A stretch of DNA of 43,511 bases from the IMG/VR virus record IMGVR_UViG_3300032269_000372, positions 1 through 43,511 of that record. The stretch is one strand, 5' to 3'. Position numbers and translations under genes: made by a program. Numbering within the stretch: position 1 is the first letter of the stretch; every line of letters begins with the position of its first letter. This DNA comes from a virus (lineage: Duplodnaviria; Caudoviricetes). Shown here piece after piece: positions 3,661 to 43,511 of this stretch. The notes under the pieces were generated by a model. That model made no database searches. It was not told the DNA's origin and was given only the letters and a program-made list of their open reading frames with translations.

Positions 3661-6318
3661 TCAGTCTGCGGTGAGCGTGTACCCACCAAGTCTTGGATTA
3701 TTCAACATGCGATCAAGAACGTGCTTGCGCGCCGATACCGGAAGATACCCGAAAACGTCGTCGATATACGAAATAGCCGCTTTGACTCCAGGGTTATTAC
3801 CGATCTGGCCGTTCGTCAACGAAAGGGTCTTGTTCGGGTTTTCAATCATGGCCTTGAGCCGCGGATCATTTCTATCCAACTTAAACGGGACCATTCGGCC
3901 GCCAATGTCAATTGCAAACGGCTTTCCACTTGTAAGCAACGTCAGTGCTTCGTTTGCAACTTCCTGCGGAGGACGATTCCCAGATTCGACCGTCGGAAGA
4001 ACCGCCTGCATGTTTCCTTCGCGAATGCGAACGCCAGGGTACGACCGGTTTCCAACCTGAACCGTCGGCTTGCCGCCCCGCAACGAAACCGTGTATGAGG
4101 ATCGAGCCTCGTTGAGCATGCGCTCGTTACGAACCTTGAATTCGGTTGTGCCACGCTTTGAGAAATAGTCTGCGCGCGCCTTTGCCATTTCCTCTGCTGC
4201 GGCATTTTCTCCGTATTTCGGCGCCGGGGGAGCATCAACAGCAATGATCTCGTTTCCGCGTCGTCGGATCCATTCTGGAGGCGTCTTACCGCCTGCTCCA
4301 TATCTTTCTTCAGCCACTGCAATCATCTGCTTCTGAACAGCATCAGCCCACTGACCCTTTGGATCAACTTCTGAAGAGCGCGAATCTTTACCAGTTCGTT
4401 CGCCACCACCAACCGCCTCAAACGAAGGCTGCCCGCCCCTGCCAAGTACAACGCCAAGTTGTTTTGCCGCTTTGTTCTTGGCCTCCTGCATCATGTTGTC
4501 GTATTCAGACTTCTGGGTCTGGTACTCGGCCACGGCCTTGGTTCGTGGTTCGCCAAGTTTGGTTGCCTCTTCGCGAATGGCAAAGTCCTGAGCCTCGGGA
4601 GTTTCGGCCGAAGCGCCCTTAAGACCAGGAACATCGCCTTCCTTCCGCTTTGGCTCTCGCATTTCTCCGCGCCGAACTGCGCCTTCAAGGATGTACAGCG
4701 AACCGGGAGGAAGCATGTCAAGTTCAGCCTGATTGCGGGGAACAGCAACGGCGCGACCGTTGAAATTTGCACCCCGAATCATCGTTGGCCTAGCCGGGTC
4801 GTCGGGATTCGGGACCATGGTGACTAGCGCGCCATTGGGAGCCTGCTGAAAGTCAATTGGAGAACCAGGCTCAATAGCGATGTTCTGGTTCGACAAGTCC
4901 GGCGCGCCGGACTGCGCTGGCGCCGGCTGTGCCGATGTCGCGGCCTGAGACCCAGGCGACATGGCTCCAGTCTGGGCAGCCTGCTGCATATACAGTTGCT
5001 GCGCCCGGTTGCGAATGTCGTCCTCAGACACTGGACTGAATGGATCAGTTTCAAGTTCCTGCTTTGCACGCTTGTATGCATCCTGATACATGCGGGCATT
5101 CTGCTGCTGACGCTGCTTGGCAAGGCGCTCTTGGATAGCAATGGATTGGCGATTCTCGCGTTCCTTGTCCGCCTCTTGCTGTGCCTGTTGGCGACCACGA
5201 GACGAAACCAGTTGTCTCGGATCACGCATAGCAGACCATAGCAAGCCATCCTGCTGCTTCTTCAACTGATCCTTTGCAGCCTGCTTCTGTCGCGGAGACA
5301 GTCTGGGGTCAACGTCCACGCGCTGCATGTTCATGTCGATGCGCTGGAATTCCTGAGCGACAGGATCGTTTCCATCAGCAAGAACTTCAAGAGTCTGAGC
5401 GCGAACCTTCGGGTCGAGGTTCCGCGCAAAATCTTCTGCTGATGACTCAGATGAAATAGGCAGCGTGTATCCAGTCACCGGATCCTGGACAAACGGCATA
5501 CTGGTCCCGTCTGCACCACGAAGCATTGGTCCATTGGGCGTGGTCACAATATTGGCGTTGCCAACTGCGCCACCTGATGTCGGAATGACGTTGCCATTGC
5601 GATCAACAGACATGGAGAATCCGACATCACCAGACATATCCCTAATAGGCTGTCCGTTGTTGTCAACGATGTTCGGCATCATCGGATTCGATGATGGGAT
5701 TGTTGGAGAAGGAAACGAAGTTTCCATTTTTTCCGCAGTACCAGGTCCAAAGTCTGCGTTTACACGAGCGTTCGCAGCAGCCATCTGTCGCGCTTCCGAC
5801 GGATCCATTCCAGATGCAATCGCTGTTTTAAAAGCGCGCTGATACGCGGCCTGGCCGTTATTTCCCTGCTGGCGACGAGCCTGCTCATAGTCAATTCGCT
5901 GCTGTTCATTCCGAAGTTCTGCCTGCGTCTTCGGTGCCGGTGCAGGCATCGGAGTTCCACCAGGAGCCTGAGTCGGACGCAACTGCGCAGGAATTGCATT
6001 CAGTGCTTCGCGCTCAGCAATGGTTCTTGCCTTTCCCTGCTCGACAAGATTGCCAACAACATCCGCGCCGGTGGAAGTTGCGCTCTTATTAGGAACAGCA
6101 GGAACAGCCGGCAACGCAGGCTTAGTAACCGTAGTCGATGGCGCTGCCGGCTGCGCCGGCGCAGAACTCGGCATTGCGCCAGTAAGCGGCTGCATGCCTG
6201 TTACCGAATCAGTCTGCGGGAGATTGACCTTGTTGCCGTATGCATCAACCGACGGCAATCCGCGCAGATCGAGCGGCGGAAGCGGTTCTTCGGTATCTGC
6301 CATGGTTCTAATTGCCAT
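3661..6318 (-). CDS. Putative internal virion (ejection) protein, ~885 aa, Gln/Pro/Ala-rich
   Basis: Long ORF; AAGGA RBS before ATG 6318; lies between tail genes and the giant protein as in podovirus core-protein clusters (positional inference). Confidence 0.65.
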   Translation of the reverse strand: MAIRTMADTEEPLPPLDLRGLPSVDAYGNKVNLPQTDSVTGMQPLTGAMPSSAPAQPAAPSTTVTKPALPAVPAVPNKSATSTGADVVGNLVEQGKARTIAEREALNAIPAQLRPTQAPGGTPMPAPAPKTQAELRNEQQRIDYEQARRQQGNNGQAAYQRAFKTAIASGMDPSEARQMAAANARVNADFGPGTAEKMETSFPSPTIPSSNPMMPNIVDNNGQPIRDMSGDVGFSMSVDRNGNVIPTSGGAVGNANIVTTPNGPMLRGADGTSMPFVQDPVTGYTLPISSESSAEDFARNLDPKVRAQTLEVLADGNDPVAQEFQRIDMNMQRVDVDPRLSPRQKQAAKDQLKKQQDGLLWSAMRDPRQLVSSRGRQQAQQEADKERENRQSIAIQERLAKQRQQQNARMYQDAYKRAKQELETDPFSPVSEDDIRNRAQQLYMQQAAQTGAMSPGSQAATSAQPAPAQSGAPDLSNQNIAIEPGSPIDFQQAPNGALVTMVPNPDDPARPTMIRGANFNGRAVAVPRNQAELDMLPPGSLYILEGAVRRGEMREPKRKEGDVPGLKGASAETPEAQDFAIREEATKLGEPRTKAVAEYQTQKSEYDNMMQEAKNKAAKQLGVVLGRGGQPSFEAVGGGERTGKDSRSSEVDPKGQWADAVQKQMIAVAEERYGAGGKTPPEWIRRRGNEIIAVDAPPAPKYGENAAAEEMAKARADYFSKRGTTEFKVRNERMLNEARSSYTVSLRGGKPTVQVGNRSYPGVRIREGNMQAVLPTVESGNRPPQEVANEALTLLTSGKPFAIDIGGRMVPFKLDRNDPRLKAMIENPNKTLSLTNGQIGNNPGVKAAISYIDDVFGYLPVSARKHVLDRMLNNPRLGGYTLTAD
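4897..4912. repeat. 16-bp palindrome GTCCGGCGCGCCGGAC, copy 1 (inside CDS, read as SGAPD)
   Basis: Exact match; extends to 18 bp with A/T flanks. Confidence 0.97.
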
Positions 6319-6601
6319 TGGTTTCCTTGTTCTCAAACGGAACGAGTTTGTTCAGTGCTTCTTGACGCTCTTTGCAACCGGCGCATGGGCTAATTCCGAT
6401 TGCCGAAGTTGCTGCGGCAATTACATCTCCAAGTCCACGCAGGCGGGCAGAATGTTTTTCTCTTGCAACATTGCAGTCAACAAGTACTGGCTCTCCATTT
6501 TTCACGCAAAAGCATCTGTTCCTAGTCTCGCCATTCCATGCATAATGAACCCGCAATACAGGAACACAGTTCATGTCATGATTGTCAGCACTGGTTCCCA
6601 T
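6308..6601 (-). CDS. Small Cys-containing phage protein (GLGDVIA...PCAGCKERQEALN motif)
   Basis: 97-aa ORF coupled to its neighbours; CxxC motif of a type I recall from aquatic phage tail regions. Confidence 0.7.
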   Translation of the reverse strand: MGTSADNHDMNCVPVLRVHYAWNGETRNRCFCVKNGEPVLVDCNVAREKHSARLRGLGDVIAAATSAIGISPCAGCKERQEALNKLVPFENKETNGN

Positions 6602-6604
6602 TGT

Positions 6605-7444
6605 TCATGACACTCGTGTAAGCGTGATTGTCGGTGGTGGTCGCCATGTAGTTGGAACCGTAACGGGAATTCCATATCCAGAAGAACAGGCAGTTCCTCC
6701 AGATAGGCAATTTGTCCATCCACCTGTTGATTTGACAGTTGGTTGCGGCGCTGGGTAGTCACATCGCAACAGGGAATATGTTCCCTCTGCGAAATACTGT
6801 CCAGTTGCTACCTGTCTCACATAATAACAGACCCACTCTTGAGTGTAGATACTCCTAGTGTCTGTATATGAAACACAATCTTCCGGATCTGGACCAATCG
6901 TGTCCCAGTGTGGGAATGAAAATGTGTCGTCGTACCAAAATCGAACAACAATGACTGTTGCGCAATCAGTTGATGTTGCACCCTCATATAAGCATGTGCT
7001 GAAATTCCAACGCAACCCTGTCATGACAGCATCAATAAAAAGATGTCCCTCTTGATCATTGAAAATGTCGGGGCAACCGGCTCCATCACATGCAGGAAAC
7101 ACATTGCCACAAAAACTCCACCGAATCGTGTGATCTCCACCAGCAGTTGGTGCAGCAGTATCAACAATGCTGTCACATATTTGAGATGCGCACTGAGTTC
7201 CCATGAAGTCTGTTACATCAACAGCCTTCCTTCTATATGTCTGCCTATTGCAAGATCCAGTTAGCGCACATGGCGGGTATGGAAAATCAAGTCCAAATAC
7301 AAGTCCATCTCCATCAGAATCTCCGAAGATTGTTGCGACTACATTTACCGACCATTCTCTAGTTGTCGCCGGAGAAATTGGACTCGGGCATGGCTGGCAT
7401 CCGGGAGAAGTGCAACAGCAAATTCCGGGAATGATGGATGTCAT
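6605..7444 (-). CDS. Cys-rich protein (279 aa, 19 Cys, N-terminal CCC), possible tail tip/receptor-binding component
   Basis: TAATG overlap with the upstream gene; visibly more AT-rich than the genome average. Confidence 0.7.
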   Translation of the reverse strand: MTSIIPGICCCTSPGCQPCPSPISPATTREWSVNVVATIFGDSDGDGLVFGLDFPYPPCALTGSCNRQTYRRKAVDVTDFMGTQCASQICDSIVDTAAPTAGGDHTIRWSFCGNVFPACDGAGCPDIFNDQEGHLFIDAVMTGLRWNFSTCLYEGATSTDCATVIVVRFWYDDTFSFPHWDTIGPDPEDCVSYTDTRSIYTQEWVCYYVRQVATGQYFAEGTYSLLRCDYPAPQPTVKSTGGWTNCLSGGTACSSGYGIPVTVPTTWRPPPTITLTRVS

Positions 7445-7974
7445 TAGCAAGTTCCGTCAATTGGATTTGGCGCCCAGAACTGAAATCGCACCGCGTTAGT
7501 CGTTGCAATTTTGACGGTGTACATCTGGACAATGGTGTCGTTCGGCACCGGCTTGAACACCATATTGGTAAATGGTGATGTAGTCAGTTTCCATTGACTG
7601 CTGCTGAAACCAACAGCAAATCCATAAGCAACCGACGCGGTATTACCTCCTTCAAGACAGTTGACCGCACTGCTTGTTCCGCTTCGACCACCACTCAGAA
7701 CTGTGAAATTGCTTGCATCGAACGGAAGGCTTCCTGGAATTACTTCGGACCACGAATATCTCCATCTCGCAGCAGTAGACGTAGTTGTTGATGCGGTGAT
7801 TTTGGCGTGGAACCAACCCTCGTCAAACTTCTGCGTCTGACGAGATGCAACATTTGCAATGGTCTGATCCCATGCCTGCAACTGTCCAACCACATTTGCC
7901 ATGCCGGCAAGTGCATCACGGAACTCTTGCGAGAACGGGTTGTACTTTCGGTTGAATTGGCTTGGGCTAAACAT
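7444..7974 (-). CDS. Putative tail/baseplate protein (176 aa)
   Basis: TGATG coupling at 7972-7976; beta-rich Ser/Thr/aromatic sequence (WFHAKIT...WRYSWSEV). Confidence 0.6.
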   Translation of the reverse strand: MFSPSQFNRKYNPFSQEFRDALAGMANVVGQLQAWDQTIANVASRQTQKFDEGWFHAKITASTTTSTAARWRYSWSEVIPGSLPFDASNFTVLSGGRSGTSSAVNCLEGGNTASVAYGFAVGFSSSQWKLTTSPFTNMVFKPVPNDTIVQMYTVKIATTNAVRFQFWAPNPIDGTC

Positions 7975-8723
7975 CAGAATGAAGTCGATGCATACATGGT
8001 CGAAATGATGTTGACGATCCATGATCCAGACGAGTCAGTCAACTGTTGCTGCGCCCAACTGGGACACGCAGAGAACATCAGTGAACCCTGGTAGGTAAAC
8101 GCTGTGTTGGTTCTGGCAACGATCTCCGCGCCATCAAACCGAAGTTGGCCGGCAGAGAACGACAGACCGCCAACGGTGTATGAATTACTGTTGACCTTAC
8201 CGGCTTTGGCTGCCCAAGTTAACATCGGATTCGTTGACTGCTGAATAGGCTGACCAACGCGCAGAACCGGGCGCGGCCACGGATATGACGCAGGGCGCAT
8301 CCCAAGGCGAGTGGCGCCCGCTGCGTCAAACCAATCAGTGCCAGTTGCCGGTGGAATACCGGTCGCTGGATCTGCGGGTCCAACCTTAAATACCGGAACA
8401 GATTCGTAAGCAAGCCTGTACTCGGCCAGAGTGGTGAAGCCACTTCCACCCCACCCACCGCTTCCGCCCCACGCATACTGCATTTCAACGATGTACTTCC
8501 CTGGGCCAACTTGCTTTGCCACTGCATTTTGAAGCGGCATCTGGAATGTGGACGAATAGTAACCATTGCCAACTGCGGTCACACACGCGCGAATCGCAGC
8601 CTCAATAGTTGTAACACTTGCATCCTCGAAGAAATGACGACGAACTGCACGCTCCGGCTGCGCAGAGTCATATCCAAGAGACGCGGTTGACCCATAGATG
8701 TTTTGGGTTATTACTGCCGTCAT
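7974..8723 (-). CDS. Putative tail structural protein (249 aa)
   Basis: Clean ORF in the structural operon; beta-rich composition. Confidence 0.6.
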   Translation of the reverse strand: MTAVITQNIYGSTASLGYDSAQPERAVRRHFFEDASVTTIEAAIRACVTAVGNGYYSSTFQMPLQNAVAKQVGPGKYIVEMQYAWGGSGGWGGSGFTTLAEYRLAYESVPVFKVGPADPATGIPPATGTDWFDAAGATRLGMRPASYPWPRPVLRVGQPIQQSTNPMLTWAAKAGKVNSNSYTVGGLSFSAGQLRFDGAEIVARTNTAFTYQGSLMFSACPSWAQQQLTDSSGSWIVNIISTMYASTSF

Positions 8724-8726
8724 TTG

Positions 8727-8987
8727 TTATTTGGTCAAATTTTCAAGGAGTCCACGAATGGCTATTGCTTCATCGTGGATCAGCGAAAGCATGTTGATCA
8801 ACTCCCTTGACATCGCACCGTCAGACGCCTGCGGAGCAGCCATTGACTGTTGATTAGTCGTTGCTGTCGCCGTAGTAGTTGTCTGCGCAAACTCATCGAC
8901 AGCAGTAGACGCCTTTGTCACACGAGCGACAAACTCATCCAGATTGGGAATCTCTGGCATTTCGCTTGGTGACGGGAAGGAACTCAT
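8727..8987 (-). CDS. Hypothetical protein (86 aa, helical)
   Basis: TAATG-coupled to the upstream gene. Confidence 0.65.
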   Translation of the reverse strand: MSSFPSPSEMPEIPNLDEFVARVTKASTAVDEFAQTTTTATATTNQQSMAAPQASDGAMSRELINMLSLIHDEAIAIRGLLENLTK

Positions 8988-9415
8988 TACGTTGCCGCTC
9001 CACCAAGACGGAAGGAGATTGCAACTCCGATGTACGCCTGCGTCTTATTGGAGTTGAACTCGATGTGTTCAATCACACCATACAGAGTCTTGGAACTAGT
9101 GGCGTTGCCGTAGTTAAGCACAATGGTACTTCCAGTTGTCGTCTCCTCGCTAACGCAAGCAGCGATCAACATGACGCTATCAGCAGTCATGTACCCAGTG
9201 ACTTGGAGACTTCCCTTTACAAGATTGGTCTTTGACCACCTGCGACTTGTATCAACACCAGAGGTTGTATCCACCAAATCTGCATCGACCGACAACTTGA
9301 CGCCGATGACATTGACGTAGAAAGTTATCAGTTGGGATGTATTTCCCGAAACGTTACTTCCATTGTATGTCACCGTCAGATTATTTACTGACGGTTTCGC
9401 CAGTGCTTCTGCCAT
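8987..9415 (-). CDS. Putative tail-tube-like protein (142 aa)
   Basis: AGGAGG RBS; size and alternating beta pattern (KLSVDADLVDTTS...KGSLQVTGY) resemble tail tube proteins. Confidence 0.5.
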   Translation of the reverse strand: MAEALAKPSVNNLTVTYNGSNVSGNTSQLITFYVNVIGVKLSVDADLVDTTSGVDTSRRWSKTNLVKGSLQVTGYMTADSVMLIAACVSEETTTGSTIVLNYGNATSSKTLYGVIEHIEFNSNKTQAYIGVAISFRLGGAAT

Positions 9416-9427: not shown

Positions 9428-9443
9428 GTCCGGCGCGCCGGAC
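9428..9443. repeat. 16-bp palindrome copy 2 (intergenic; extends to 20 bp TAGTCCGGCGCGCCGGACTA)
   Basis: Exact match; fills most of the 31-bp gap and abuts the AGGAGG RBS of the 8987..9415 gene. Confidence 0.97.
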
Positions 9444-9446
9444 TAA

Positions 9447-9713
9447 TTACGAAACGGTCAGAGCAGTCCAAGTCGCCGTGGTCGTCGTGCCAAGGTTGAT
9501 GTACACCGTGGTCGTCGTCTTGTTGGTCGTTGCGCTGGTGTTGATCAGGAATGCACCAGTAGCGTATCCCTGATAATCAACACCAGACTGAGCAGCAGGA
9601 ATTGCACCACTGCTGTTTGTGATGTTTCCAAAGGCACCAACCTGAATGACCTTGCCGCCAGTCTGAAGAACGCCGTCCTTGTTGATCGACTCGAAGTAAT
9701 TGTGTCCAGGCAT
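9447..9713 (-). CDS. Small structural protein (88 aa)
   Basis: GGAG RBS; Thr-rich C-terminus (VYINLGTTTTATWTAL) like decoration/fibre fragments. Confidence 0.7.
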   Translation of the reverse strand: MPGHNYFESINKDGVLQTGGKVIQVGAFGNITNSSGAIPAAQSGVDYQGYATGAFLINTSATTNKTTTTVYINLGTTTTATWTALTVS

Positions 9714-16889: not shown

Positions 16890-17801
16890 TTACGAGCCAG
16901 ACATACGATCACGCATCATGGATGCGACGTTTGCAATTGCCTTTTCACGACCGGAAACAGGGCGCTTGCCATTGCTTGTCGGACGTGCGATCAACTGCGA
17001 CTCACGCTGCTTTACCTTTGATGCGAGTTGCCTCTGCTCAACCTGTTTGACTTTGCCGCCGAAAACACTTCGGACGGCCTGATCGAACGCTTCGGCTGCA
17101 TCAGGAGCGCGCTTCTTTGCGCTCTTTGCTGCTTCACGAATGCGTTGCATTTCCGAAACGACGCTCGCGCGAGCCTTGTAGTGTTCGGACCGTGACGACA
17201 ACGAGGAGGAAGGGCCTTCGCCAAACACATCGGCGAAGTCCTCTCCCAACTTTGCAATCATGTAGTCCGCCTCTTCAACACGCGCAGTCGGGGCAGAGCG
17301 CTCGACCGATGAAGACTTCATTCGGTCAAGTTCTGCCTTCAGCGCCTTGATTGCCTTGATTGCAGACGGATCGATTGCATCGTCTTCATCAAGCGCTCCA
17401 AGCGCCTCGTACTCGGAACTTGGGTTTGCACCCGCATCAGGCTTGCGCCTGGATTGTTCGTCGTCGGTCGTTTCGACCGATGCCTGGCGCTGCAACGCAG
17501 CAATGACGCTGCGGAGCGCTCCGGTGTCCTTGAGTTGCGCAATCTCATCATCGTGCATGCCAAGATCCTTGGCCTTCGATGCGAGTTCGCGAAGAACGCC
17601 CGAGTCACTTTCATCAAGGACTTCGGGAGAGTCCGGCGCGCCGGACTTCGGGGTATTGGGGATAACGTCGTAATAGGACGAATCAGGCTCGTCAAAATCA
17701 AGCGGATCAGGCCGCTTGGTATCGGCAAGTTGGTCGCGCGTCGGGAACGCTTCCTGTTCCGTCGTCGGCTCGGGCATGAATTCGTCGTCGTTAGTCGCCA
17801 T
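16890..17801 (-). CDS. Scaffolding protein (303 aa)
   Basis: Acidic disordered N-terminus, helical middle, basic C-terminus; located between portal and MCP. Confidence 0.75.
   Translation of the reverse strand: MATNDDEFMPEPTTEQEAFPTRDQLADTKRPDPLDFDEPDSSYYDVIPNTPKSGAPDSPEVLDESDSGVLRELASKAKDLGMHDDEIAQLKDTGALRSVIAALQRQASVETTDDEQSRRKPDAGANPSSEYEALGALDEDDAIDPSAIKAIKALKAELDRMKSSSVERSAPTARVEEADYMIAKLGEDFADVFGEGPSSSLSSRSEHYKARASVVSEMQRIREAAKSAKKRAPDAAEAFDQAVRSVFGGKVKQVEQRQLASKVKQRESQLIARPTSNGKRPVSGREKAIANVASMMRDRMSGS
17631..17646. repeat. 16-bp palindrome copy 3 (in the scaffold gene, SGAPD)
   Basis: Exact match. Confidence 0.97.
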
Positions 17802-22078: not shown

Positions 22079-22368
22079 CCTTCACCCTCGTACAAGATTC
22101 TCTGCATCTCTTTCCTCCTGCATTCGTTCAGGAGGACATGCAACCGAAGGATCTCGGCCTGCATCCAAGTCTGCTCTCGCATCTCCTTGGACAGTTCGAC
22201 ACGAAGGTTCACGATCTCGTCCTTACATTCAGCGAGAAGAACTTCCGCCTGTTTGCAGCGGGGTGCCGTGAATCGCTCAACCTTCTCAACAATGTCCAGG
22301 TCGATGTCCTCCTCAACAAGAAGACTATCGTCAACCCATGTGAAATCATTCAGAACTTTCTTTGGCAC
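22075..22368 (-). CDS. Hypothetical coiled-coil protein (97 aa)
   Basis: ATGA-coupled; GTG start with GGAG upstream. Confidence 0.6.
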   Translation of the reverse strand: MPKKVLNDFTWVDDSLLVEEDIDLDIVEKVERFTAPRCKQAEVLLAECKDEIVNLRVELSKEMREQTWMQAEILRLHVLLNECRRKEMQRILYEGEG

Positions 22369-22978
22369 CCATCGCTCCTTCAGAGATCATGCGGACCCGT
22401 TCGATCAACTCCAGCACGGACGACCCATCATCGGACAGGCGCTCGGCTGCCTCCAACTGCTGCTTGCTCGGCATCATCTTTGCCCAGATCTGACCCCAGA
22501 ACTGTGCCTCGTTCTGGTTTGACCGGCGCGCCCACGAAAGCATGCTCCATGCCTCCATGCTCGGCGCATCCTCGGCCCTGGGATCCGCAACCATCATCTG
22601 CTTCGCCACCCACTCGACCGTCTTCGTGATCGAGCAACTGCGTTCCCCAAATACCTCCGCAGCAACACGCCCGACCGAGTCCGGCGCGCCGGACTTCCCT
22701 AGTCCTTCCACCGGCTCCGAAACTCCATCTCGTCCATCACCGTCACGATCGCCAGAGTCAAGACCATTCCCACCGGTATCCCCAATGCCGTGTACACCCA
22801 CTCCATTCGTCACCTCCTCGTATGCTCGAAACCACGCCTCAGGGGCAGGCATACCTCCAGCCTTTAGCCCCTCACGCCTATCCACGAACACCTGCCACAG
22901 CCCGCGCTCCACAAGTTCGGCACGCTGCGCAACCTTGTTCTTGCGATGCCGAAACTGGTCGTCAGAGATCCGTGCCAT
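22346..22978 (-). CDS. Putative terminase small subunit (210 aa)
   Basis: First gene of the late operon upstream of TerL; ATG 22978 (MARISDDQFRHRK...). Function inferred from position. Confidence 0.55.
   Translation of the reverse strand: MARISDDQFRHRKNKVAQRAELVERGLWQVFVDRREGLKAGGMPAPEAWFRAYEEVTNGVGVHGIGDTGGNGLDSGDRDGDGRDGVSEPVEGLGKSGAPDSVGRVAAEVFGERSCSITKTVEWVAKQMMVADPRAEDAPSMEAWSMLSWARRSNQNEAQFWGQIWAKMMPSKQQLEAAERLSDDGSSVLELIERVRMISEGAMGAKESSE
22679..22694. repeat. 16-bp palindrome copy 4 (in putative terS, SGAPD)
   Basis: Exact match. Confidence 0.97.
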
Positions 22979-22986: not shown

Positions 22987-22995
22987 AGTCTACCA
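22987..22995 (-). promoter_or_regulatory. Possible extended -10 (TGGTAGACT) for a near-leaderless late transcript
   Basis: TGn-TAGACT 8 nt upstream of ATG 22978; no SD sequence before that ATG. Confidence 0.35.
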
Positions 22996-23390
22996 CGAGT
23001 TGATTTATGGTGTGGGGGGTGGGGGTATATCTGGCGCGATGAACGTGCCGGTCATCGCGGTTTGATTTTCGCAGGCCCGGGTGTTGGCGCGCATGACGCC
23101 CGCGCCCCGGAGCGCGCACGTCGCGCGGTCGCGAGCGCGAGCCTCCCCACCGCGACCCCCGCGGCCGCCCAGCCGGCTCGCCCTGGCACCGGCCAGCCGG
23201 CACGGCGGCACGACCACCACCCCGGCGCGGTGCATGCGGTCAGGGCGGCGCGGTGCGCGTCATGCGGGTGGACCGTCCGGCGGGGGCGACCGGGCGCAGA
23301 GAGAGGAACGCGCGCGCATGCGCGTCGGGCTGAGGCGGGGTGGGCGGACTACCCCCCGCTCCCCACCCACCCCATGACCATGCCCATGGG

Positions 23391-23406
23391 GTCCGGCGCG
23401 CCGGAC
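23391..23406. repeat. 16-bp palindrome copy 5 (intergenic, 14 bp upstream of the early -35 box)
   Basis: Exact match. Confidence 0.97.
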
Positions 23407-23420: not shown

Positions 23421-23449
23421 TTGACACTCCCGGCGCATGCGTGTATGCT
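23421..23449 (+). promoter_or_regulatory. Sigma70-like early promoter TTGACA-N17-TATGCT
   Basis: Perfect -35 box, 17-nt spacer and near-consensus -10 upstream of the first plus-strand gene. Confidence 0.8.
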
Positions 23450-28058: not shown

Positions 28059-28194
28059 CATGGGCATGGCATGCGCATGGCATGGGCATGCAGGGTGAAG
28101 TACATGCTTCACCGCCCGGAACCGGCTGCCCATGCGCCGCCGGTCCCGGCAGCCGCGCGCCATGCACCAGGGCGGCGGCGGGGGTCGGCGGCGT

Positions 28195-28239
28195 GGCAAG
28201 CAATGACCGATTCCACGGGCAAGCAATGACCGATTCCAC
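28195..28239. repeat. Tandem direct repeat, 2 x 22 bp GGCAAGCAATGACCGATTCCAC
   Basis: Identical copies at 28195-28216 and 28218-28239. Confidence 0.95.
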
Positions 28240-28287
28240 CGCTTCCAGAAAGTGGAAGTTTATCTTCTGGTTTTTGGCTGATGGGTA

Positions 28288-28315
28288 TTGACCGATCGAG
28301 ATGAATCTGTATAGT
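28288..28315 (+). promoter_or_regulatory. Sigma70-like promoter TTGACC-N16-TATAGT for the replication block
   Basis: Near-consensus boxes with AT-rich upstream sequence, ~90 nt before the HTH gene. Confidence 0.65.
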
Positions 28316-28403
28316 GGTGCAGTCGTGCCATCTGACAGCGTCGTATGCGCTGCATTTAGGTACCTTTTCGCAAGGGGACTACTGATGCCCGAGGAGGCAA
28401 CAA

Positions 28404-28640
28404 ATGACGCAGTACGCAGGAATGTCGATCGCGGTAATCACCGAGGATCTACGGCAGAGGATCGTCCGACTCAAAGAGAAGTACGGGGTGTCGTTCCGAA
28501 CTTTGGCGAAAGAGGCCAAGATGAGCCAGTCGCATCTGATGCGGTTCGTGTGGCGGAAGCATCACAACCTGATGTCGGAAACCCTGACCCGGTTGGACGC
28601 GACGGTCAACCGCCTGTCCGCCGAACGCGAAGCAAGGTAA
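28404..28640 (+). CDS. XRE/Cro-like helix-turn-helix protein (78 aa)
   Basis: GGAGG RBS; SFRTLAKEAKMSQSHLMRFV HTH pattern. Confidence 0.8.
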   Translation: MTQYAGMSIAVITEDLRQRIVRLKEKYGVSFRTLAKEAKMSQSHLMRFVWRKHHNLMSETLTRLDATVNRLSAEREAR

Positions 28641-29557
28641 CTCCGCTCCCCGAGATCCACAGCGGCATGCTGACGGATGCATGCCCCCGCCGGGTCCAAC
28701 TGCGGATCGAAGGCAAGGCCACTACGTCGGCGCCTACCGCCCTGTACCGGGGCGTCCTTGTTGGCGAGGTGCTGCGCGAGTACCACGAAGGCAAGGCGTG
28801 GGGCGTTACTCCATCGGTCATTGTTGAGACGGTGGCGACGCGAGTCAAGAAGCAGTTCGATTCCGAGGGGCGGGTAATGACCGATTCCGTGGATGCGAAC
28901 ATTGCCGAGATTCACGCCGAGGTCTCAAGCATCGTTGCCCTGTATGTGGACCGCTTTGCCGATCGGTTCAAGAAGGCCGAGTTGATCGGCTGCGAATTGC
29001 CGTGTCGCATGCAGATCAAGCGGGTCAAGTTTGCATCGCACCTTGACCTGATGTTCCGAGACACCGAGGGGAGTCTTAGCGGCAAGCCTGGTCAGTTGGT
29101 GGTATGGGATTGGAAGTGGCGCCAGGAATCCCCGACGCGCGCATACCTGTCCCGCAACCTGCAACTTGCCATGTACTGGCTGATGGTGCAGCGAGGCAGC
29201 GTCCGCACCGACTCCATATTCGACCTGTGGGAGAAGTACGGCGAGGTACCGGCGGTGATGTGGTGCCACCTCCCGGCTCTCAAACCCTATTCAAGGGTGA
29301 CCACCGTGCAGGACGATGATGGTGTGGAGCGCACCTACGTCAAGGGCGAGTTCCGACCCGAGCGCAGCATCGTGAGGGACTGCGGATTCAGGGACGGCAT
29401 GCAGCAGTATGTCGAAGGCGAGATCCTGAAGCGCGTTGAGTTGATGAAGAAGGGTCTGGACATCGCCATTCCCGACCCGATTGGTTGTCACCTGTGCGAG
29501 TGCGAACCGTGGTGCCGTAGGTTCGATACCGCTGAACTTGGAACGCGGCATGTCTGA
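28637..29557 (+). CDS. Cas4/RecB-like PD-(D/E)XK exonuclease (start uncertain; first ATG after the HTH gene is 28667)
   Basis: N-terminal CPRR, HLD...VVWDWK, QLAMY and C-terminal CHLCECEPWC (Fe-S staple pattern). Confidence 0.85.
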   Translation, partial: VTPLPEIHSGMLTDACPRRVQLRIEGKATTSAPTALYRGVLVGEVLREYHEGKAWGVTPSVIVETVATRVKKQFDSEGRVMTDSVDANIAEIHAEVSSIVALYVDRFADRFKKAELIGCELPCRMQIKRVKFASHLDLMFRDTEGSLSGKPGQLVVWDWKWRQESPTRAYLSRNLQLAMYWLMVQRGSVRTDSIFDLWEKYGEVPAVMWCHLPALKPYSRVTTVQDDDGVERTYVKGEFRPERSIVRDCGFRDGMQQYVEGEILKRVELMKKGLDIAIPDPIGCHLCECEPWCRRFDTAELGTRHV

Positions 29558-29960
29558 GAAAGGGACTGCAATGAACTGGGCAAACGAAGGAAAGAAGCCG
29601 ACTGGCAAGGGCAACAAGGCCCCGCAGAAGACTGCGGAACTTGTGTTGGAGGTGCTTACCTGCGCCGACATCTACATCCGTTCCACCGCCGAGTACAAGA
29701 AGGCGACGGATCAGATGGTCGATCGCGAGGACAGGCACACGGCCATGGCGGCGGCGCTTGCGTGGGAACGCGCTTGCCTCACCGCTGTGGACATGCTTGC
29801 CAAGTCGCTCAATGACCTGTGCGAGAGCGACCCGACCGTCGCCAACATCCTCCGTGATCGTTGGGGACAGACCGGAGAGATCATCAGCATGAGCATCCCC
29901 ATGCTTGCGTTGATGGCTGACATGAAGGAAACGAAGAACAAGGAGAACAACGATGAATGA
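29550..29960 (+). CDS. Hypothetical protein (136 aa)
   Basis: Overlap-coupled between the nuclease and the annealase. Confidence 0.65.
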   Translation: MSEKGTAMNWANEGKKPTGKGNKAPQKTAELVLEVLTCADIYIRSTAEYKKATDQMVDREDRHTAMAAALAWERACLTAVDMLAKSLNDLCESDPTVANILRDRWGQTGEIISMSIPMLALMADMKETKNKENNDE

Positions 29961-30852
29961 GATCATGCGTACCAACACCATGCCGATCGCCATGCAGATG
30001 GACCCGATGACGGTCGCTCAGGTGTTCAAGGCGTCAGGGATGTTCCCTGACATCCAGTCAGAGGCCGCTGCCTGTGCCAAGATCATCATTGGCCGTGGTC
30101 TTGGGCTGAGCGACTATGACGCCATGACCGGCCTCCACATCATCAAGGGAAAGGCCGTGTTGGCTTCCAACCTCATGGCTGCCTCGATTAAGCGCGCGGG
30201 CAAGTATGACTATCGTGCCGAATGCACCGATGATGAATGCACCATCGTGTTCTATGGTCGCACCATGGACGGCAAGATGGAGCAGATCGGCACCACGTCC
30301 TACACCATGGAGGACGCCAAGCGCGCGCGCCTGACTGGCGGGGACAACTGGCAGAAATACCCGCGCGCTATGCTGTTCGCACGATGCATCAGCACGGGCT
30401 ATAAGCAGCATTGCCCGGACGCGCTTGGTTCGGCGCCCGTGTATGTGGAGGCTCATGGCGAGATGGAGATTGCCGACGATTCCACGGGTCCGGCGCAGCC
30501 CGTGCAGACGATCCGCCAGGTTGCATCGGAGCCGAAGGGGAAGAAGGTTTCCCCGAAGCAGTCGTTCCTGAATGCCGTTGCCGAATGGGTTGGATGTTCG
30601 ACCAAGGAAGCAATTCCGCATGGCATGCGCATCCTTGCCGCGCTGTCGCTTCCCACTGACGGATCTGTTGACGACAACAAGGTCCGTTGGGCTGAGACGT
30701 GGGTACGGACCCGCATTGAGGAAGGCATGGGGATCGAAGTCCTCGATGCCAAGAATGATGATAAGTCCGAGCCGAGCGCGCCCGTCAAGCGCACGGCCAA
30801 GAAAGAAGAAGCACCCGCAATTTCGGTTGAAACCGAGGAACTGGAGTTCTGA
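29953..30852 (+). CDS. RecT/Red-beta-like single-strand annealing protein (299 aa)
   Basis: IIIGRGLGLS...LHIIKGK...WQKYPRAMLFAR motifs; acidic tail ending ELEF; next to an exonuclease. Confidence 0.8.
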   Translation: MNEIMRTNTMPIAMQMDPMTVAQVFKASGMFPDIQSEAAACAKIIIGRGLGLSDYDAMTGLHIIKGKAVLASNLMAASIKRAGKYDYRAECTDDECTIVFYGRTMDGKMEQIGTTSYTMEDAKRARLTGGDNWQKYPRAMLFARCISTGYKQHCPDALGSAPVYVEAHGEMEIADDSTGPAQPVQTIRQVASEPKGKKVSPKQSFLNAVAEWVGCSTKEAIPHGMRILAALSLPTDGSVDDNKVRWAETWVRTRIEEGMGIEVLDAKNDDKSEPSAPVKRTAKKEEAPAISVETEELEF

Positions 30853-31607
30853 TGTCACGCAGCAAGAAGATCGATCACGCGCAGATCATGCAGACCGCTC
30901 TTGACGAGCAGGTCGAAATTATCAAGCGGTGCGAACACGAAGTCGTTACCAAGTGGAAGGTGATGGCAATGGCAGTCAAGGAGATCCACTCCAACCGCCT
31001 ATGGGAGGCGAACTACGAGTCGTTCGAGCATTGCATGTCCACGGCGATCGGTTGGAAGAAGTCATGGGCATACGAGATGCTCAAGGCCGCCGATGTCCTG
31101 GCTGATGCGCCGATCACGGATGCAAGCATGGCGCGCTATCTGCATGCACTTGCCCCGCAGCAGCGCATGATTGCATGGGAGGGCGCCGTCACTGAAGCCG
31201 CTCCCGAGAAGCCGACCCGCGAACACGTCAAGAAGTCCGCTGCCATGCTCAAGGGTGGCAAGGATGGCGAGATCGGTGAGGGTGACGATGGCGAGAAGGA
31301 GTCCGGCGCGCCGGACGAGCAGGAGCCGCCGTCGATCGTGCCGGATTCTTCCGAGTTCGACCGCATCGTCGCCATGCTGCGCGAGGCGCGCAATGCCATT
31401 GAGGCCCTGTCGGAGAAGCCGGCCGGCTCGTTCATCACGCCGGCACAGATCGTCGTGGACCTCAAGAACGTGTTCAATGCCCTGTCGTGGGCAAAGCCGT
31501 ATTGCGTGTGCGTCTACTGCGAGGGCGAGGGCTGCAAGCATTGCCAGTCGCGTGGATGGCTCTGCAAGGGTCTGTATGCGTCTGCACCGGAGGACATGAA
31601 GTCGTGA
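30852..31607 (+). CDS. Putative DNA-binding protein with C-terminal CxxC-G-G-CxxC-G Zn finger (251 aa)
   Basis: YESFEHCMSTAIGWKKSWAYEML HTH-like segment; CVYCEGEGCKHCQSRG. Confidence 0.7.
   Translation: MSRSKKIDHAQIMQTALDEQVEIIKRCEHEVVTKWKVMAMAVKEIHSNRLWEANYESFEHCMSTAIGWKKSWAYEMLKAADVLADAPITDASMARYLHALAPQQRMIAWEGAVTEAAPEKPTREHVKKSAAMLKGGKDGEIGEGDDGEKESGAPDEQEPPSIVPDSSEFDRIVAMLREARNAIEALSEKPAGSFITPAQIVVDLKNVFNALSWAKPYCVCVYCEGEGCKHCQSRGWLCKGLYASAPEDMKS
31301..31316. repeat. 16-bp palindrome copy 6 (in CDS, SGAPD)
   Basis: Exact match. Confidence 0.97.
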
Positions 31608-31798
31608 ACGACGAGCGCGATCCCGGTGATGAACACCGCGACCAGCCGTCTGCCCCGCGCCCGGACCCGGACAAGTTTGTCCGGTACGGGCCGGGGCCGG
31701 GCGACTACTTTGAACCAGTGAACGACTGGCGACTGCCGAGCCAAAGGGGCAGGATCTGCCGAGATGGAATCCACACCTGGGTTGAGGATGACAAATGA
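31604..31798 (+). CDS. Hypothetical protein (64 aa)
   Basis: GTGA/ATGA overlaps with both neighbours; GGAGG upstream. Confidence 0.6.
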   Translation: MNDERDPGDEHRDQPSAPRPDPDKFVRYGPGPGDYFEPVNDWRLPSQRGRICRDGIHTWVEDDK

Positions 31799-33438
31799 GC
31801 AATCGAATGAATCTGAGGCCATACCAGTTGGACGCCGTTGATGGCGTTCGCTCTGCGCTTCTTGCCAAGCAATCGGCATTGGTGGTCATGCCGACAGGAA
31901 CTGGCAAGACGGTTTGCTTTGCGCACATCGCCAAGCAGTCCGTCATGCGAGTCATGGTCATTGCGCATCGCGAGGAGTTGGTGCAGCAGGCGGCGGACAA
32001 GATTCGCGCTGTGACTGGTATTTCGCCGGACATCGAGATGGCGGAATACAAGGCCGGGCGCATGTACAAGTCGCCCGTGGTGGTTGCAAGCGTTCAGACG
32101 CTTTGCGCTCCATGGGGGGACGTGCATCGCATGGTGAAGTTTGATCCGCATGAGTTTGACATGCTTGTGATTGACGAGGCGCACCATGCAACCGCCGACT
32201 CATACCGCCGCATCATGCAGCACTTCTCCAAGAACCCGAGGTTGCGCACCGTTGGGTTTACTGCAACGCCCGACCGTGCCGACAAGGCCGCGCTTGGCAT
32301 GGTGTTTGAGTCCGTTGCATTCAAGTACGAGATCCTGTCGGCAATGAGCGACGGGTGGCTTGTTCCCATTGAAACGCAGCAGGTGATTGTCAAGGACCTT
32401 GATTTCAGCCACGTCAAGACCATTGGCGGCGACCTCAACCAGGGCGAGTTGGCGACCATCATGCAGCAGGAGAAGATCCTGCATGGCGTCGTGACGCCGA
32501 CGATTCAGATTGCCGGCAAGCGCAAAACGCTTGTGTTCGCTGCTAGCGTTGCGCATGCGGAACGCATGTCCGAGATCTTTAACCGGCATGGCGTCACATC
32601 TGCCGTTGTGCATGGCGGCACGTTCAAGGACGAGCGCCGCCGGATCCTTCAGGCGTATGCGGATGGCATGATTCAGGTGCTATGCAACTGCGGCGTGGCG
32701 GTCGAGGGGTTTGATTGCCCGACCATCGAGGTGGTTGCCATTGCGCGTCCGACGAAGTCGCGCGCCTTGTACACGCAGATGGTGGGACGTGGAACCCGAG
32801 TGCTTCCGAATGTCGTGGACGGCGTGACGGATCCCGAGGCGCGCCGCAATGCGATTGCGCGAAGCGCCAAGCCGAGCATGCTGGTCATTGATTTCACGGG
32901 CAACAGTGGGCGTCATAAGTTGGTGAGCGTGGCCGACGTGCTTGGTGGCAAGTACAGCGAGGAGGAGATCTCCGAGGCCAAGCGTCTCATTGCCGAAGCC
33001 GGCAAGCCGGCTGACGTGATTGCGGAATTGGAGCGCGCCGCCAGTGAGATCATTGAGAAGCGCAAGGAAGACGCGCTGAAGGAGAAGCGTGGCATTGTCA
33101 CAGCGCGTGTCGAGTTCTCGACCAAGCAGGTAGATGCATTCGGCATCCTCAATATCGGGCCTGAGCGCCTGTCCCAGGCAGCAAAGAACACGGCTCCGCT
33201 CTCGCATGCACAGCAAGCCATGCTTGCGCGCAACGGAATCGACATTGCTGGCTTGCCGGTCGGGCATTGCCGCGTGATATACAACGAGATCCTGCGGCGC
33301 ATCAAGTCTGGCCGATGCTCATACAAGCAAGCAAGCATCCTGCGCAAGTACGGATATGGAACAAACGTCGGTTTCAAGGAAGCGTCACGAATCATCGATA
33401 CCCTCAAGTCCAACGGATGGAAGAAAGTGAGTGCATGA
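31795..33438 (+). CDS. Superfamily 2 DExH helicase (547 aa)
   Basis: LRPYQ Q-motif, PTGTGKT, DEAHH, TAT, EGFD and QMVGRGTR. Confidence 0.93.
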   Translation: MSNRMNLRPYQLDAVDGVRSALLAKQSALVVMPTGTGKTVCFAHIAKQSVMRVMVIAHREELVQQAADKIRAVTGISPDIEMAEYKAGRMYKSPVVVASVQTLCAPWGDVHRMVKFDPHEFDMLVIDEAHHATADSYRRIMQHFSKNPRLRTVGFTATPDRADKAALGMVFESVAFKYEILSAMSDGWLVPIETQQVIVKDLDFSHVKTIGGDLNQGELATIMQQEKILHGVVTPTIQIAGKRKTLVFAASVAHAERMSEIFNRHGVTSAVVHGGTFKDERRRILQAYADGMIQVLCNCGVAVEGFDCPTIEVVAIARPTKSRALYTQMVGRGTRVLPNVVDGVTDPEARRNAIARSAKPSMLVIDFTGNSGRHKLVSVADVLGGKYSEEEISEAKRLIAEAGKPADVIAELERAASEIIEKRKEDALKEKRGIVTARVEFSTKQVDAFGILNIGPERLSQAAKNTAPLSHAQQAMLARNGIDIAGLPVGHCRVIYNEILRRIKSGRCSYKQASILRKYGYGTNVGFKEASRIIDTLKSNGWKKVSA

Positions 33439-35092: not shown

Positions 35093-35119
35093 GTCCATCC
35101 TGGCGCCGTGTGGTTTTTT
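35077..35119 (+). terminator. Rho-independent terminator
   Basis: 13-bp perfect stem CCACACGGCGCCA/TGGCGCCGTGTGG plus TTTTTT. Confidence 0.88.
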
Positions 35120-35136
35120 ATCCTGGTACTCCCGCT

Positions 35137-35331
35137 ATCGCATGCGGCCTGCACTGAGGTGCAATGCGATTCCAATCTCGCGGGGCGGTAGCGAGATCAC
35201 CATGATGCTGCGGTCGGCGACGACACACTGCCGCAGATTCTGTCCGGCCCGCCGGACTCGTCATGGCAGGCAGGGTGCAACTACCGGATGCCTGACCCAA
35301 ACACCGATTGCCCGACCTCGCGAGGGGTCGG
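35137..35331. other. Multi-hairpin intergenic element (candidate structured RNA or replication signal)
   Basis: Six consecutive inverted repeats between convergent operons. Confidence 0.45.
35242..35257. repeat. 16-bp palindrome, degenerate copy (GTCCGGCCCGCCGGAC, 1 central mismatch)
   Basis: 15/16 match. Confidence 0.9.
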
Positions 35332-35338
35332 TACGTCT

Positions 35339-35581
35339 TCAGGATGATGCGAGATAGGCTCCCATGACTCTACCGCCTGCGTCCACCTTCTGTGACTCCA
35401 TGCGCGGCCTGGTTCCAAGCCTGATAGCGCGCTCGGTGGGAGTAAGTTCAAACCACAGCATCGCCATGGCCTCGACTACGTCGATGCTCTTGACATTGTT
35501 TGCGACGCCATCGACGGCAATCTTCGCGTACGTCTCTTCCCTGATTCGGACCGATGCTGTGTTTGGCTTTTTTGGGTTCAT
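35339..35581 (-). CDS. Small ribbon-helix-helix-like DNA-binding protein (80 aa)
   Basis: ATGA overlap with the giant gene; TASVRIREETYAKI strand-helix pattern. Confidence 0.55.
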   Translation of the reverse strand: MNPKKPNTASVRIREETYAKIAVDGVANNVKSIDVVEAMAMLWFELTPTERAIRLGTRPRMESQKVDAGGRVMGAYLASS

Positions 35582-41500: not shown

Positions 41501-43511
41501 GATCCCATTTCGTATCGAATGGACGCGATTTTCTCAGCAACTTCTTTATCGGATGACAAAGTTCCTAGCCTTGTTGCGGCCACGACTTCGTCCACAAATG
41601 CATTCATCTGATTTTGAAGCGCGAAACCGGAAATGCCAATCAGATTCTGTTTCTCGCGTCCGCGCTGCAACAGCAATTGAGAAGTGAAAGTTTGTCCCAT
41701 TGGATTTTGTCGAGGATCCAGTAGTGCTGGATTCTCAACGAAATCTAGTGATGTAAATGACTGACCGAGAAACTTTGCATACAGCGCGTCTGTATCAAAC
41801 ACCAACTCTCCGCGCGCGCCCAGATTGAAGAATGTATTGTCTCCGCCGCCACCAATACCCATGGTGCCGCCGTAATCAAACACAACGCCTTCGGTATCTA
41901 CGTTGCCGCTGTGGAGATCGTTTGCAATCAGCGTGTTGGCAATGCCTGCCTGCCTCGAAATCGTCAACAGATCAAATCCACCAGGACGATCAACATTACC
42001 AGCCCAAAACTTGAGACCCTGTCGGATCTTCGTAGCAAATCCGCTGACAAGCGTTGATGAACGACCAACGTCGCTATCTGGATTCAGTTCAGATGTTTGA
42101 ATTGCTACGTTGTTCGGCATGAACGCCGGAAGGCCAAGCGCCTCGGCAATCAGGTTTGCGGCCATCTCGTTCTGAAGCATCAGGCGCCGTCGGTCCAAAC
42201 CAGTTTTGTCAATAAGGTCAAGAACCTTGCTAGGGTCGATCGGGACAAGGTGTTTAACGTAATAATCCTGTCCGTCAGCACCAGTCATCATTGCTGCGCT
42301 AGTTGCGCCACGTCGATCACGAAAAGTTTCCGGGTCCCTTTGGAATTTGTTGATCGTGTCGGTCGACAGCGGAAGCGGCTGTGGGTTGTCAAACGTCGCG
42401 ACGTTGCGGATCGCTTGTGAAATCGACGACTCTTGAATGCCAGGGCGCTTTGCCTTCATTGCCGCTTTGGCCTGGTCTCGGATCGACTCTTCCTGGTCCT
42501 CAACGGACACAAGCGGAGCAAGCGCTTTGCGAACGGACTGGTCAAGCGCAGGAATGCGCGCGCTCACGTCGGCGGCCGTCATCGGATTCGCGTCGATATC
42601 AGCCATGGCAATCTTGCCACGCTTTGCATCCATCATCTGCACAAGCGCACGGGCAATCAACTGCTGCGCCGCATGGCGCTGACGCGGGTTGCCAAGTTCT
42701 GCCGGGTTGTCGGCAAACCGACGAAGGACCCGGACTTGCTCGTCGTTCATGCCGCGCGCCTTCTTGGTCAAGCCGGGGATAGCCTCGAAGGCATCCATGA
42801 TGCCCGATGCAATCTTGGCAAGCAAACCGATGGCCGGCTTTGTATCAGCAATCCTGCGCAGTTCATCCACGTCAATCTTGCCGGACTCATCAACCACGGC
42901 AACGAACGCGCCATCCATCAGCATCTCTGCAAGGTTGGCAACTTCCTCTTCCATCAACTTCGCCTCGGGCAGGCTGATGCGCTGCGCGCTTGCCATGCGC
43001 CGGCGGAACTCCTTGCGGTACTTCGACGCAGCATCGCTGGTCGGCTCGGAAAGCGAGGAGAGATCCTGGCTATCAAGGGCGGCCATCAACTGCTCGGGCA
43101 TGTTGGCCCGCAACAGCGCGGCATCCTCGGACTCGTCGTTGCGCGCAACCCACAGAATTGCGTCTCGGTCCGTCTCGTTCTCGGAATTGAGCATGACAAG
43201 TCCGGCGCGCCGGACTGCGGCCATTCTGTTCTGACCCTCCAAGTTCGCCATGTACGTCTTGCGCAACTCGCGCAGGGCGCGCGGCATCTTGCGGTTCAGT
43301 TGCTTGTACAGCGAGACAAACGTCTCCGGGCTTGTCTTGGCAATGTGATGCATCGTCTCGTGAAGCGCGATTGCAAACATCGCGGACGGACGATTGATGT
43401 CCTGGGCAGACAGGAAGACAATGCCTTCCTTGTATGCGCCGGCAGTCCTAGACGCCTTCGGGGTCTGGATGAACACCACGGTGATGCCCAACTTCTTGCC
43501 GAAGTTGACAA
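35578..43511 (-). CDS. C-terminal part (>2640 aa) of the giant polyvalent virion protein: two HExxH metallopeptidase-like, one kinase-like, one HhH glycosylase-like and a C-terminal helical region
   Basis: Open to the window edge. HETMH (43348-43362); YYVK..NEMAA..DLHSGN..DYGG (~41860-42270); HELAH (40603-40617) with DEFIAQA; WY..GPKIG..TMDRW..DLQAVYW (~38690-39605). Confidence 0.88.
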   Translation of the reverse strand, partial: VNFGKKLGITVVFIQTPKASRTAGAYKEGIVFLSAQDINRPSAMFAIALHETMHHIAKTSPETFVSLYKQLNRKMPRALRELRKTYMANLEGQNRMAAVRRAGLVMLNSENETDRDAILWVARNDESEDAALLRANMPEQLMAALDSQDLSSLSEPTSDAASKYRKEFRRRMASAQRISLPEAKLMEEEVANLAEMLMDGAFVAVVDESGKIDVDELRRIADTKPAIGLLAKIASGIMDAFEAIPGLTKKARGMNDEQVRVLRRFADNPAELGNPRQRHAAQQLIARALVQMMDAKRGKIAMADIDANPMTAADVSARIPALDQSVRKALAPLVSVEDQEESIRDQAKAAMKAKRPGIQESSISQAIRNVATFDNPQPLPLSTDTINKFQRDPETFRDRRGATSAAMMTGADGQDYYVKHLVPIDPSKVLDLIDKTGLDRRRLMLQNEMAANLIAEALGLPAFMPNNVAIQTSELNPDSDVGRSSTLVSGFATKIRQGLKFWAGNVDRPGGFDLLTISRQAGIANTLIANDLHSGNVDTEGVVFDYGGTMGIGGGGDNTFFNLGARGELVFDTDALYAKFLGQSFTSLDFVENPALLDPRQNPMGQTFTSQLLLQRGREKQNLIGISGFALQNQMNAFVDEVVAATRLGTLSSDKEVAEKIASIRYEMGSQLVRYLAPQYEGSGVLQYGVSNKGRPYGQSLSPILKKVASELEEFSDSTDANRALEASGYGTKMVAFPSQFAGVVQSQVAEMLQMRAVLAAKAFRLVADLLDGKPAFNEMQIFTIVRSVYTYPLDVADTKAGADLLRRAQSAENEEPISQSIAPPAYESEYSEAVRKEADARDMRTYEPRVGDVIRVSSNDGRGAFVKIKSFDLAKRVSDDFVLAALEDRNALLRADPTNRSQVDQIDAKIALLQELLLKNKSLLTSAVIYRDPSNLGRAFMQDKSDGTSVLYMSEYNNLNTFIHELAHGLTSSAIDNEDKEYRTFSPKILNPLSTLSGKEYINRLQDIMDSTKNDAIKDIIQIYLAVGPRFSAIEAQSNSGFGSGVDNKSVMFGRRAAHEFDKARPLWSQMLKSSDYKNLSGNYTIQPFELDNIAYGLTNIDEFIAQATSSPDMRNYLARFPYDGDQAFTLVRLDTTPQAKRETSLLDRLYTAIKRLLLGMPADPGNSALAKTSAAMSQIMETYSFQELMALADRTTQESKRLGRAADDLLGSRLDQSIRPIPDEVARTAGVQNIVKMARGKKFDKIRDFKMEIQRAVQASAKKAGVDLTAEDSAAVDEYIVRVAMKDAKVALAMKNNAVGWYDEKVKKALAVMSLVYPELKADERSQFIMKMALAITSNQMDVPRNFVLAAQAYEYYKRTGRMPVNIGEGGSKKAMNDGMKRVNRMIAKHGIDWVMGFMQEKRTVRDIEKMTGKKVSGEGMNTVVYGAAIFGPKIGNGFFANLYGNYEQLTMDRWFMRTWGRWIGLLIDANPQNIADQRTQMRDMLKTMSQKSPRSLRQIGDLIGEDLTKFAGGKMASGRLTEIAQNIARRSVKEEFRDQLASMANGDNLRRMANTHAKSVDGSIESPRSARVRNRIRMVMQGVLDGLRKDYPDLTMADLQAVYWYPEKRLYDVAKVDEDTDELTYDKGGLPDYEQAAIAFVSERNVKRAAINKEIKRIDDERALVSKQRATGGGRPAVGRGSTSGRRGQPAAPAIDARAAKGADGTSPLVQSLRDSASVYQPADAVAADMALSQAIGGSAVRSEGEDRLAALGRAWLGTARQLAGKFGPKPISVEDSDDIEIVTAAADISPFWKFIAAPLNLAIASKNPEVISVVEDMINMDMERNLVTKSRQDEATAVWESIPKEDRDSEEFSRHMDMYHPPETIDTNPEFQSKSQAWRDALKWFKEREEVRREEIIETKRESIRGMLKRDNSTRLVARAAQNGMEWEVVRSDRGRKMIKTADGTVTMDQAREMLVNKMIPDNWGRQYAHFYHWFNGDFKLVGYDANDTRTIIGSAITEPEAYEKLYAFKRANPGMYKKLVAEPAVRIDPDDAVRLSDAQRRRLEKMLADATGAYRDEVADAMRGIVGSKTSKRPFYAPLMERTGAGGYVTDFPMVWNMSERLHNRWRMGGDMVRKLTPKIESIRRKTPGWGDYLAESMRHTLFTAPTMTEAAIDSMIRAIPVVGKIVSPFPTRRWLGSIRALNYARQLLTVRQQIVNSFQPIQTVYPILGEKGIMEAVSFYNSEEGKVVLRKHGFFDGSARFREGEDRVLGSDIMGFVSTMNDKIYKQTNETFNPSSEARNQNFAFVAMYHHAKYRMGMTEEEAVRYGRVYGNVYTQFYYTKANVPWLLRGPIASTSLQYRRFAINTTGLLVNEFQRGNYSGVARYMATMSLLGGIQSSIGLSAASLIRSLYLGDKEGADDLNYKLRQWLKSELGSESMADVAMMGLPAAIGIDLSGSISIWQKPFGRNVYEKIGATIAGPTVNTAIQLMTNLTAETAIPMGAGERLTRGLLDSSPAAQQVVNLWKLFSGDNAEYDATGRLKFKLDPEEQFLKALAFRTVNETVWSMEYQRLRIIRNEVDRYANEAATYLAGNDRASAQKVLREFNSLYPMAAMNMRDIERRAKNKLQSRQMPQLLRRLDIESGVVARRIADAEGLGE
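43200..43215. repeat. 16-bp palindrome copy 7 (in the giant gene, read as VRRAGL)
   Basis: Exact match, in a different reading frame from the other coding copies. Confidence 0.97.

Follow-up and report, generated by a model that had tools for sequence, protein, structure and literature searches.

The closest described systems pair a helical ParB-type DNA-binding fold with a 16-bp inverted-repeat site, as in ParB/parS, SopB/sopC and Noc/NBS (PMC7383237, PMC3597684); chromosomal parS is conserved, and specificity has been shown to diversify between ParB and Noc via the recognition helix. KorB of IncP plasmids uses a ParB-family domain to read OB palindromes dispersed on a small replicon, some of them near promoters (PMC13768133, PMC3597684), and is a CTP-dependent sliding clamp that acts with KorA and TrbA and also partitions its plasmid (PMC13768133). 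Cluster O mycobacteriophages carry more than 30 copies of a 17-bp dyad with 7-bp arms and a 3-bp centre, dispersed and partly genic, for which a dimeric binder was predicted; the accessible part of PMC4351075 assigns these dyads neither a reader nor a function, and it reports that the phages encode a parB-like domain protein for which its authors thought a genome-stability role unlikely. Cluster A mycobacteriophage stoperators lie in and between genes genome-wide, and they are asymmetric and oriented with transcription (PMC4351075). Here we describe a dispersed 16-bp palindrome in the virus record IMGVR_UViG_3300032269_000372 (43,511 nt, analysed at full length and called the window below) and argue that its eight copies are probably binding sites for dimers of the protein encoded by open reading frame (ORF) 30852..31607. 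Its recognition is like that of parS by ParB or of OB by KorB, whereas the lack of a CTPase domain and of any ParA match sets it apart from ParABS; with 2–8 copies per genome it is sparser than the Cluster O dyads, whose phages are unrelated. We found no publication on the palindrome or on its pairing with this protein, in a literature search that lacks most subscription journals.

The window is a single, circularly permuted tailed-phage genome of 43.5 kb from an uncultured, aquatic phage, and it holds the seven perfect copies and the one-mismatch copy that the original prediction had listed. Among 100 dinucleotide shuffles, sites with at most three mismatches averaged 0.56 and peaked at 3, and none of the 100 reached eight; resampling of synonymous codons at the five coding copies never gave more than two perfect 16-mers in 2000 trials. 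The reading frames are as claimed, the element being read as SGAPD in four genes (the virion gene 3661..6315, the scaffold-like and terS-like genes and ORF 30852) and as VRRAGL in a giant gene, and the A...T extension is present on both flanks of five of the eight copies. The proposed constraint on DNA rather than peptide is supported, as are a dimeric binder, which the sites suit, and a parS-like architecture: two 7-bp arms around a tolerant 2-bp centre make the 16-bp inverted repeat that ParABS-type sites require. The array resembles stoperators in its genome-wide placement in and between genes; since a stoperator is asymmetric and the element here is a perfect palindrome, it is not a stoperator array in the strict sense, an option that had been raised. 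Misassembly, named as a possible refutation, is unlikely, contigs from run X1 (possibly the source sample) spanning five copies with no differences. Spacing is more even than random in the window genome (P about 0.006), a regularity that is not family-wide: of the 12 long records tested, only 3 reach P < 0.02.

No strand is assigned to any copy. Those in the minus-strand late region lie at 4897..4912, in the virion/ejection-type gene 3661..6315, which also has copies in the relatives G001, G002/G003 and G005; at 9428..9443, between the stop of 9447..9713 and the ribosome-binding site and ATG of 8987..9415 (both minus strand), the same place as in G001, G003 and G005; at 17631..17646, where the scaffold-like gene encodes a variable linker; and at 22679..22694, inside the terS-like gene 22346..22978 (minus strand), with a conserved motif resembling a late promoter about 300 bp upstream of it. 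This strand also has the genes assigned, by position and by scanning 41 ORFs against Pfam and PHROGs, as portal-, terminase-, scaffold- and capsid-like; the names portal, scaffold and terS come from position and conservation, with no family match behind them. The copy at 23391..23406 precedes the -35 box of an early promoter by 14 bp, that at 31301..31316 is in the linker of the likely binder's own gene, and the 15/16 copy at 35242..35257 forms a hairpin within a conserved, structured non-coding region between the converging early and late genes. The last, at 43200..43215, is in the giant virion-type gene, a single in-frame ORF of about 3860 codons on the minus strand (window 3652-1, then 43511-35578) that spans the contig ends; it has no Pfam match, inspection by eye shows a kinase-like stretch as well as HExxH-like motifs, and it looks like an ejected polyvalent protein. 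The structured region (window 35105-35345, minus strand, between the RusA-like and RHH-like genes in five phages) has 67 predicted pairs, 20 of them with two-sided changes, and no Rfam match; it is likely an undescribed phage RNA, as predicted from these pairs.

Conservation in relatives, which the original prediction made a test, is borne out: of 70 stretches found by an exact scan of IMG/VR, 33 align to the window by blastn, every contig with at least two copies (7/7) has at least one aligning stretch, and independent relatives hold copies in homologous context. There are six perfect copies in 32.6 kb of G001, five each in G002 and G003 (overlapping fragments, not independent) and seven with 0–2 changes in G005. 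Across 28 sites of the window's motif class (class A), the outer five bases of both arms are invariant and changes are confined to the central six. Within the scaffold-like, terS-like and 30852 proteins, the copies occupy the linkers that vary most, and four-fold sites are 42% identical among the window-related genomes; site variants mostly alter the amino acid (five of six rows), the reverse of selection at the peptide level. Sites also turn over. The scaffold copy is missing from one sub-lineage (L074, L081-L083 and G002), the giant-gene copy of G001 lies about 1.3 kb further on in another reading frame, and L365 has lost the hairpin copy and carries a 15/16 copy in a nearby terminator instead, while the linker copy of ORF 30852 reads SGAPD in 16 of 26 homologues, is a one-change variant in five and is absent from five.

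A comparison of 33 related records read whole, mostly the longest among the best 80 matches per capsid scan out of several hundred relatives, roughly 450 by capsid gene, revealed that every subclade has its own dispersed palindrome, giving six motif classes in one phage family: GTCCGGC-NN-GCCGGAC in class A, TTCCGGR-NN-YCCGGAA in G023 (6 copies), GTCGCGY-N2/3-RCGCGAC in class B (3–4), GTCAACT-NN-AGTTGAC in class C (6–8), CCTGCCA-NN-TGGCAGG in class D (3–8) and CGGTACR-NN-YGTACCG in class E (2–3). Cross-counts of motifs between classes are near-diagonal, and the site sequence differs per lineage, unlike that of chromosomal parS. Recurrent positions also include the 30852 orthologue, inside or directly ahead of it, and the end of the replication operon. 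The class C motif emerged after masking a second, clustered palindrome, TTGGTTCGCGAACCAA, with 9–11 copies, nearly all in the early region (G015 24961-32007; G022 745-8828 and 44738; L451, L452, L462), whose array likely comprises putative operators of a separate repressor. That the palindromes act as hairpins, or as a self-pairing RNA or single-stranded DNA signal with no double-strand binder, is scarcely credible: the element is self-complementary, some copies lie in the structured non-coding region and class D copies sit in longer hairpins, but the arms are invariant, no compensatory changes occur within a class, variants break the symmetry and each class keeps one fixed sequence.

The reader that we favour, the 251-residue product of ORF 30852..31607 (plus strand), had been one of three candidates named at the outset. 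Its gene lies between the recT-like and SF2 helicase genes of a plus-strand module with the order exonuclease, recT-like, ORF 30852, SF2 helicase, primase, RusA-like. The predicted fold contains a ParB-type helix-turn-helix DNA-binding domain, a ParB/Spo0J-type helical domain covering residues 9-141 (30876..31274, plus strand; pLDDT 95), followed by a variable linker and a predicted C-terminus with a helical hairpin and a CxxC, Zn-finger-like element. The predicted recognition helix GWKKSWAYEMLK (31050..31085, plus strand), equated by eye with helix 4 of ParB (PMC7383237), is near-invariant in class A and differs in other classes; specificity apparently diversifies via this helix as between ParB and Noc. 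G023 and class A match in both helix and motif core, though the tree places G023 with class B. The differences from ParB are equally clear. No CTPase (ParB_N) domain was found: 26 class A members give no Pfam match, and the protein has just one long helix ahead of the matched domain, which leaves no room for it; no ParA-type ATPase was matched among the 41 ORFs scanned; a C-terminal Zn domain is added; and the gene sits in a phage replication operon. The only non-helicase ATPase match is an AAA_5/MoxR-type enzyme undetected in several array-bearing records; the AAA_5 gene forms an early-region pair with a DUF7192 gene (window 23922-26386) that is patchy among relatives. CTPase-less ParB-like phage proteins of the DUF3102/ParB-like type form 1,080 clusters at E<=1e-10.

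The other two candidates are not supported. The beta-strand of the ribbon-helix-helix (RHH)-like protein is near-identical across motif classes, and the protein was not detected in two array-bearing class C genomes; the XRE protein was detected in 6 of 25 records and in none of C, D, E or G023, where a divergent copy could escape detection. Upstream of the XRE/exonuclease operon stand two tandem copies of a 13-mer, AATGACCGATTCC, which occurs three times in the window (28202, 28225 and 28876) and also three times in G002.

Several observations weigh against the assignment to ORF 30852. When the similarity of helices was compared with that of half-sites over the six classes, the Mantel test returned p 0.06-0.23, whereas capsid identity against motif similarity gave p 0.007, so kinship alone could explain the resemblance of motifs. 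The agreement between G023 and class A is one contrast only, thresholds were chosen after the fact, and the array-negative records are mostly outgroups, of which two may be incomplete and one, G026, has lost the whole module. A ParB-type fold need not bind DNA, as in Raf1. G026, which has no window-type replication module, carries a dyad with GTCGGCA arms that clusters at its contig ends (127, 548, 1443 and 44508; L476, L478).

This tracking of kinship, at least as good as that of the helix, would also fit another reader (a different replication-module gene, the terminase, an ejected virion protein or a lineage-specific host factor), which we consider improbable. RHH identity correlates weakly with the motif (rho 0.62, p 0.075, five classes), and the host lacks a species-level assignment. 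Against this, the terS, zinc-ribbon and capsid genes persist in array-less records, the recT-like protein of G020 is 23% identical to that of the window compared with 45–49% in its class B sisters and yet G020 keeps the class B motif, and the RHH strand hardly varies between classes. Nor was an iterated host copy found. An 18-mer search of 185,579 species representatives (596 Gb) returned only 102 stretches, with no iterated genome among the 80 listed, each of which has one copy except for one tandem repeat, and the 16-mer has one or two copies in each of five genomes checked; mimicry of an iterated host palindrome, another early proposal, finds no support in this collection, which may not include the true host. 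In the class of a Phycisphaerales record, 9 of 401 genomes have capsid relatives, compared with 0 of 401 in that of a Verrucomicrobia record, which, with one control class and distant relatives, makes Phycisphaerae the likely host group. Near-identical virion modules, from terS to the giant gene, lie among bacterial genes in two Phycisphaerae-class genomes (G137:C10, ~129000-157000, L672-L673; G242:C61, ~8700-37000, L675-L676); they could be a domesticated element resembling a gene transfer agent, and no replication gene, ParB-like gene or array was found within the stretches read. A longer palindrome with CCGCAT arms occurs six times within 20 kb around a distant capsid relative in L681 (G208:C127, 235-17843) and may be a host repeat.

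If the ORF 30852 protein is the reader, its main job might be genome-wide transcription control, as a KorB-like regulator or a symmetric roadblock on the early promoter, its own operon and the late promoter, a role that we regard as rather unlikely. The early promoter (23421..23449, plus strand; sigma70-like, TTGACA-17-TATGCT, a consensus match only) has its palindrome 14 bp from the -35 box in G005, as in the window, and 25 bp in G002, about one helical turn further; in G006 a copy exactly fills the -35/-10 spacer, the class C terS copy sits at the start codon, and copies lie in or just upstream of the binder gene in classes A, C and D and in G020. ParB-family proteins are, moreover, reused as transcription factors (PMC13768133). 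However, a sigma70-like promoter lies within 120 bp of only one of the eight window copies, five being deep in genes; class C has its separate, clustered, operator-like early array beside the dispersed one; and the long-range action of KorB requires CTP-dependent sliding, whereas the ORF 30852 protein is predicted to be a static phage binder. A minimal partition system for a plasmid-like prophage, in which the protein, on dispersed centromeres and without ParA, would maintain the genome as host cells divide, is less probable by far. Phage N15 reportedly has dispersed centromeres, and no integrase was found among the 41 ORFs scanned; the same fold and a 16-bp inverted repeat occur in parS and sopC (PMC3597684), but neither a ParA-type match nor a CTPase domain nor any sign of a plasmid state was seen.

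One copy of the array is fixed at terS. In each of the 18 classed records with this gene it lies 195-1211 bp before the gene's 3' end, and it is present in all six motif classes (rough chance figure over the six, 1e-5). Upstream of terS, an ACTYGTGGTA-type motif (22991..23000, minus strand), seen in classes A, D and E and in G023, is likely an extended -10 late promoter, judging from its sequence. A P22-type pac also lies inside terS (PMC8575938), as one copy here is always in or just before that gene; yet such a pac is a single directional site, whereas the terS copy is symmetric, is one among several identical copies in the genome and is missing from relatives that keep terS. A possible link to packaging gains support from this fixed copy.

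We posit, tentatively and at slightly less than an even chance, that the sites serve the bound protein as fixed anchors, marking the phage genome and linking the replication module to a late or packaging step at terS. A dimer of the ORF 30852 protein would dock on each palindrome and stay put, one helix-turn-helix reading each 7-bp arm; with no CTPase domain and no ParA found, it should neither slide nor segregate DNA as ParB does. Specificity would shift with the recognition helix, and each change would force a lineage to rewrite its sites in tolerant places, namely linkers, hairpins and gene junctions. More loosely, the C-terminal Zn domain would contact the helicase or primase or bridge sites, and the terS copy would time or position the start of packaging. 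Anchoring of this kind, by which replication would be coupled to late or packaging events, is favoured by the fixed terS copy and by the tie between the C-terminal domain and the helicase gene. A stronger version, in which each lineage bears a private 16-bp self-mark read by a CTPase-less ParB-like protein that hands replicated DNA to the packaging motor at terS, is doubtful; if true, a protein of the replication module, not the terminase, would determine packaging specificity, and the six pairs of helix and palindrome would supply an orthogonal recognition code ready for use.

A single phage family offers one specific candidate for the reader and six naturally occurring pairs of helix and site, which makes the proposal testable with purified domains and short oligonucleotides, with no culture of phage or host. 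If confirmed, the pairing would provide DNA targets for the very large DUF3102/ParB-like phage family, reveal repeated genome-wide rewriting of sites after shifts in specificity and yield small orthogonal DNA-binding modules. The constant copy at terS suggests a control link, so far undescribed, between replication and late or packaging events.
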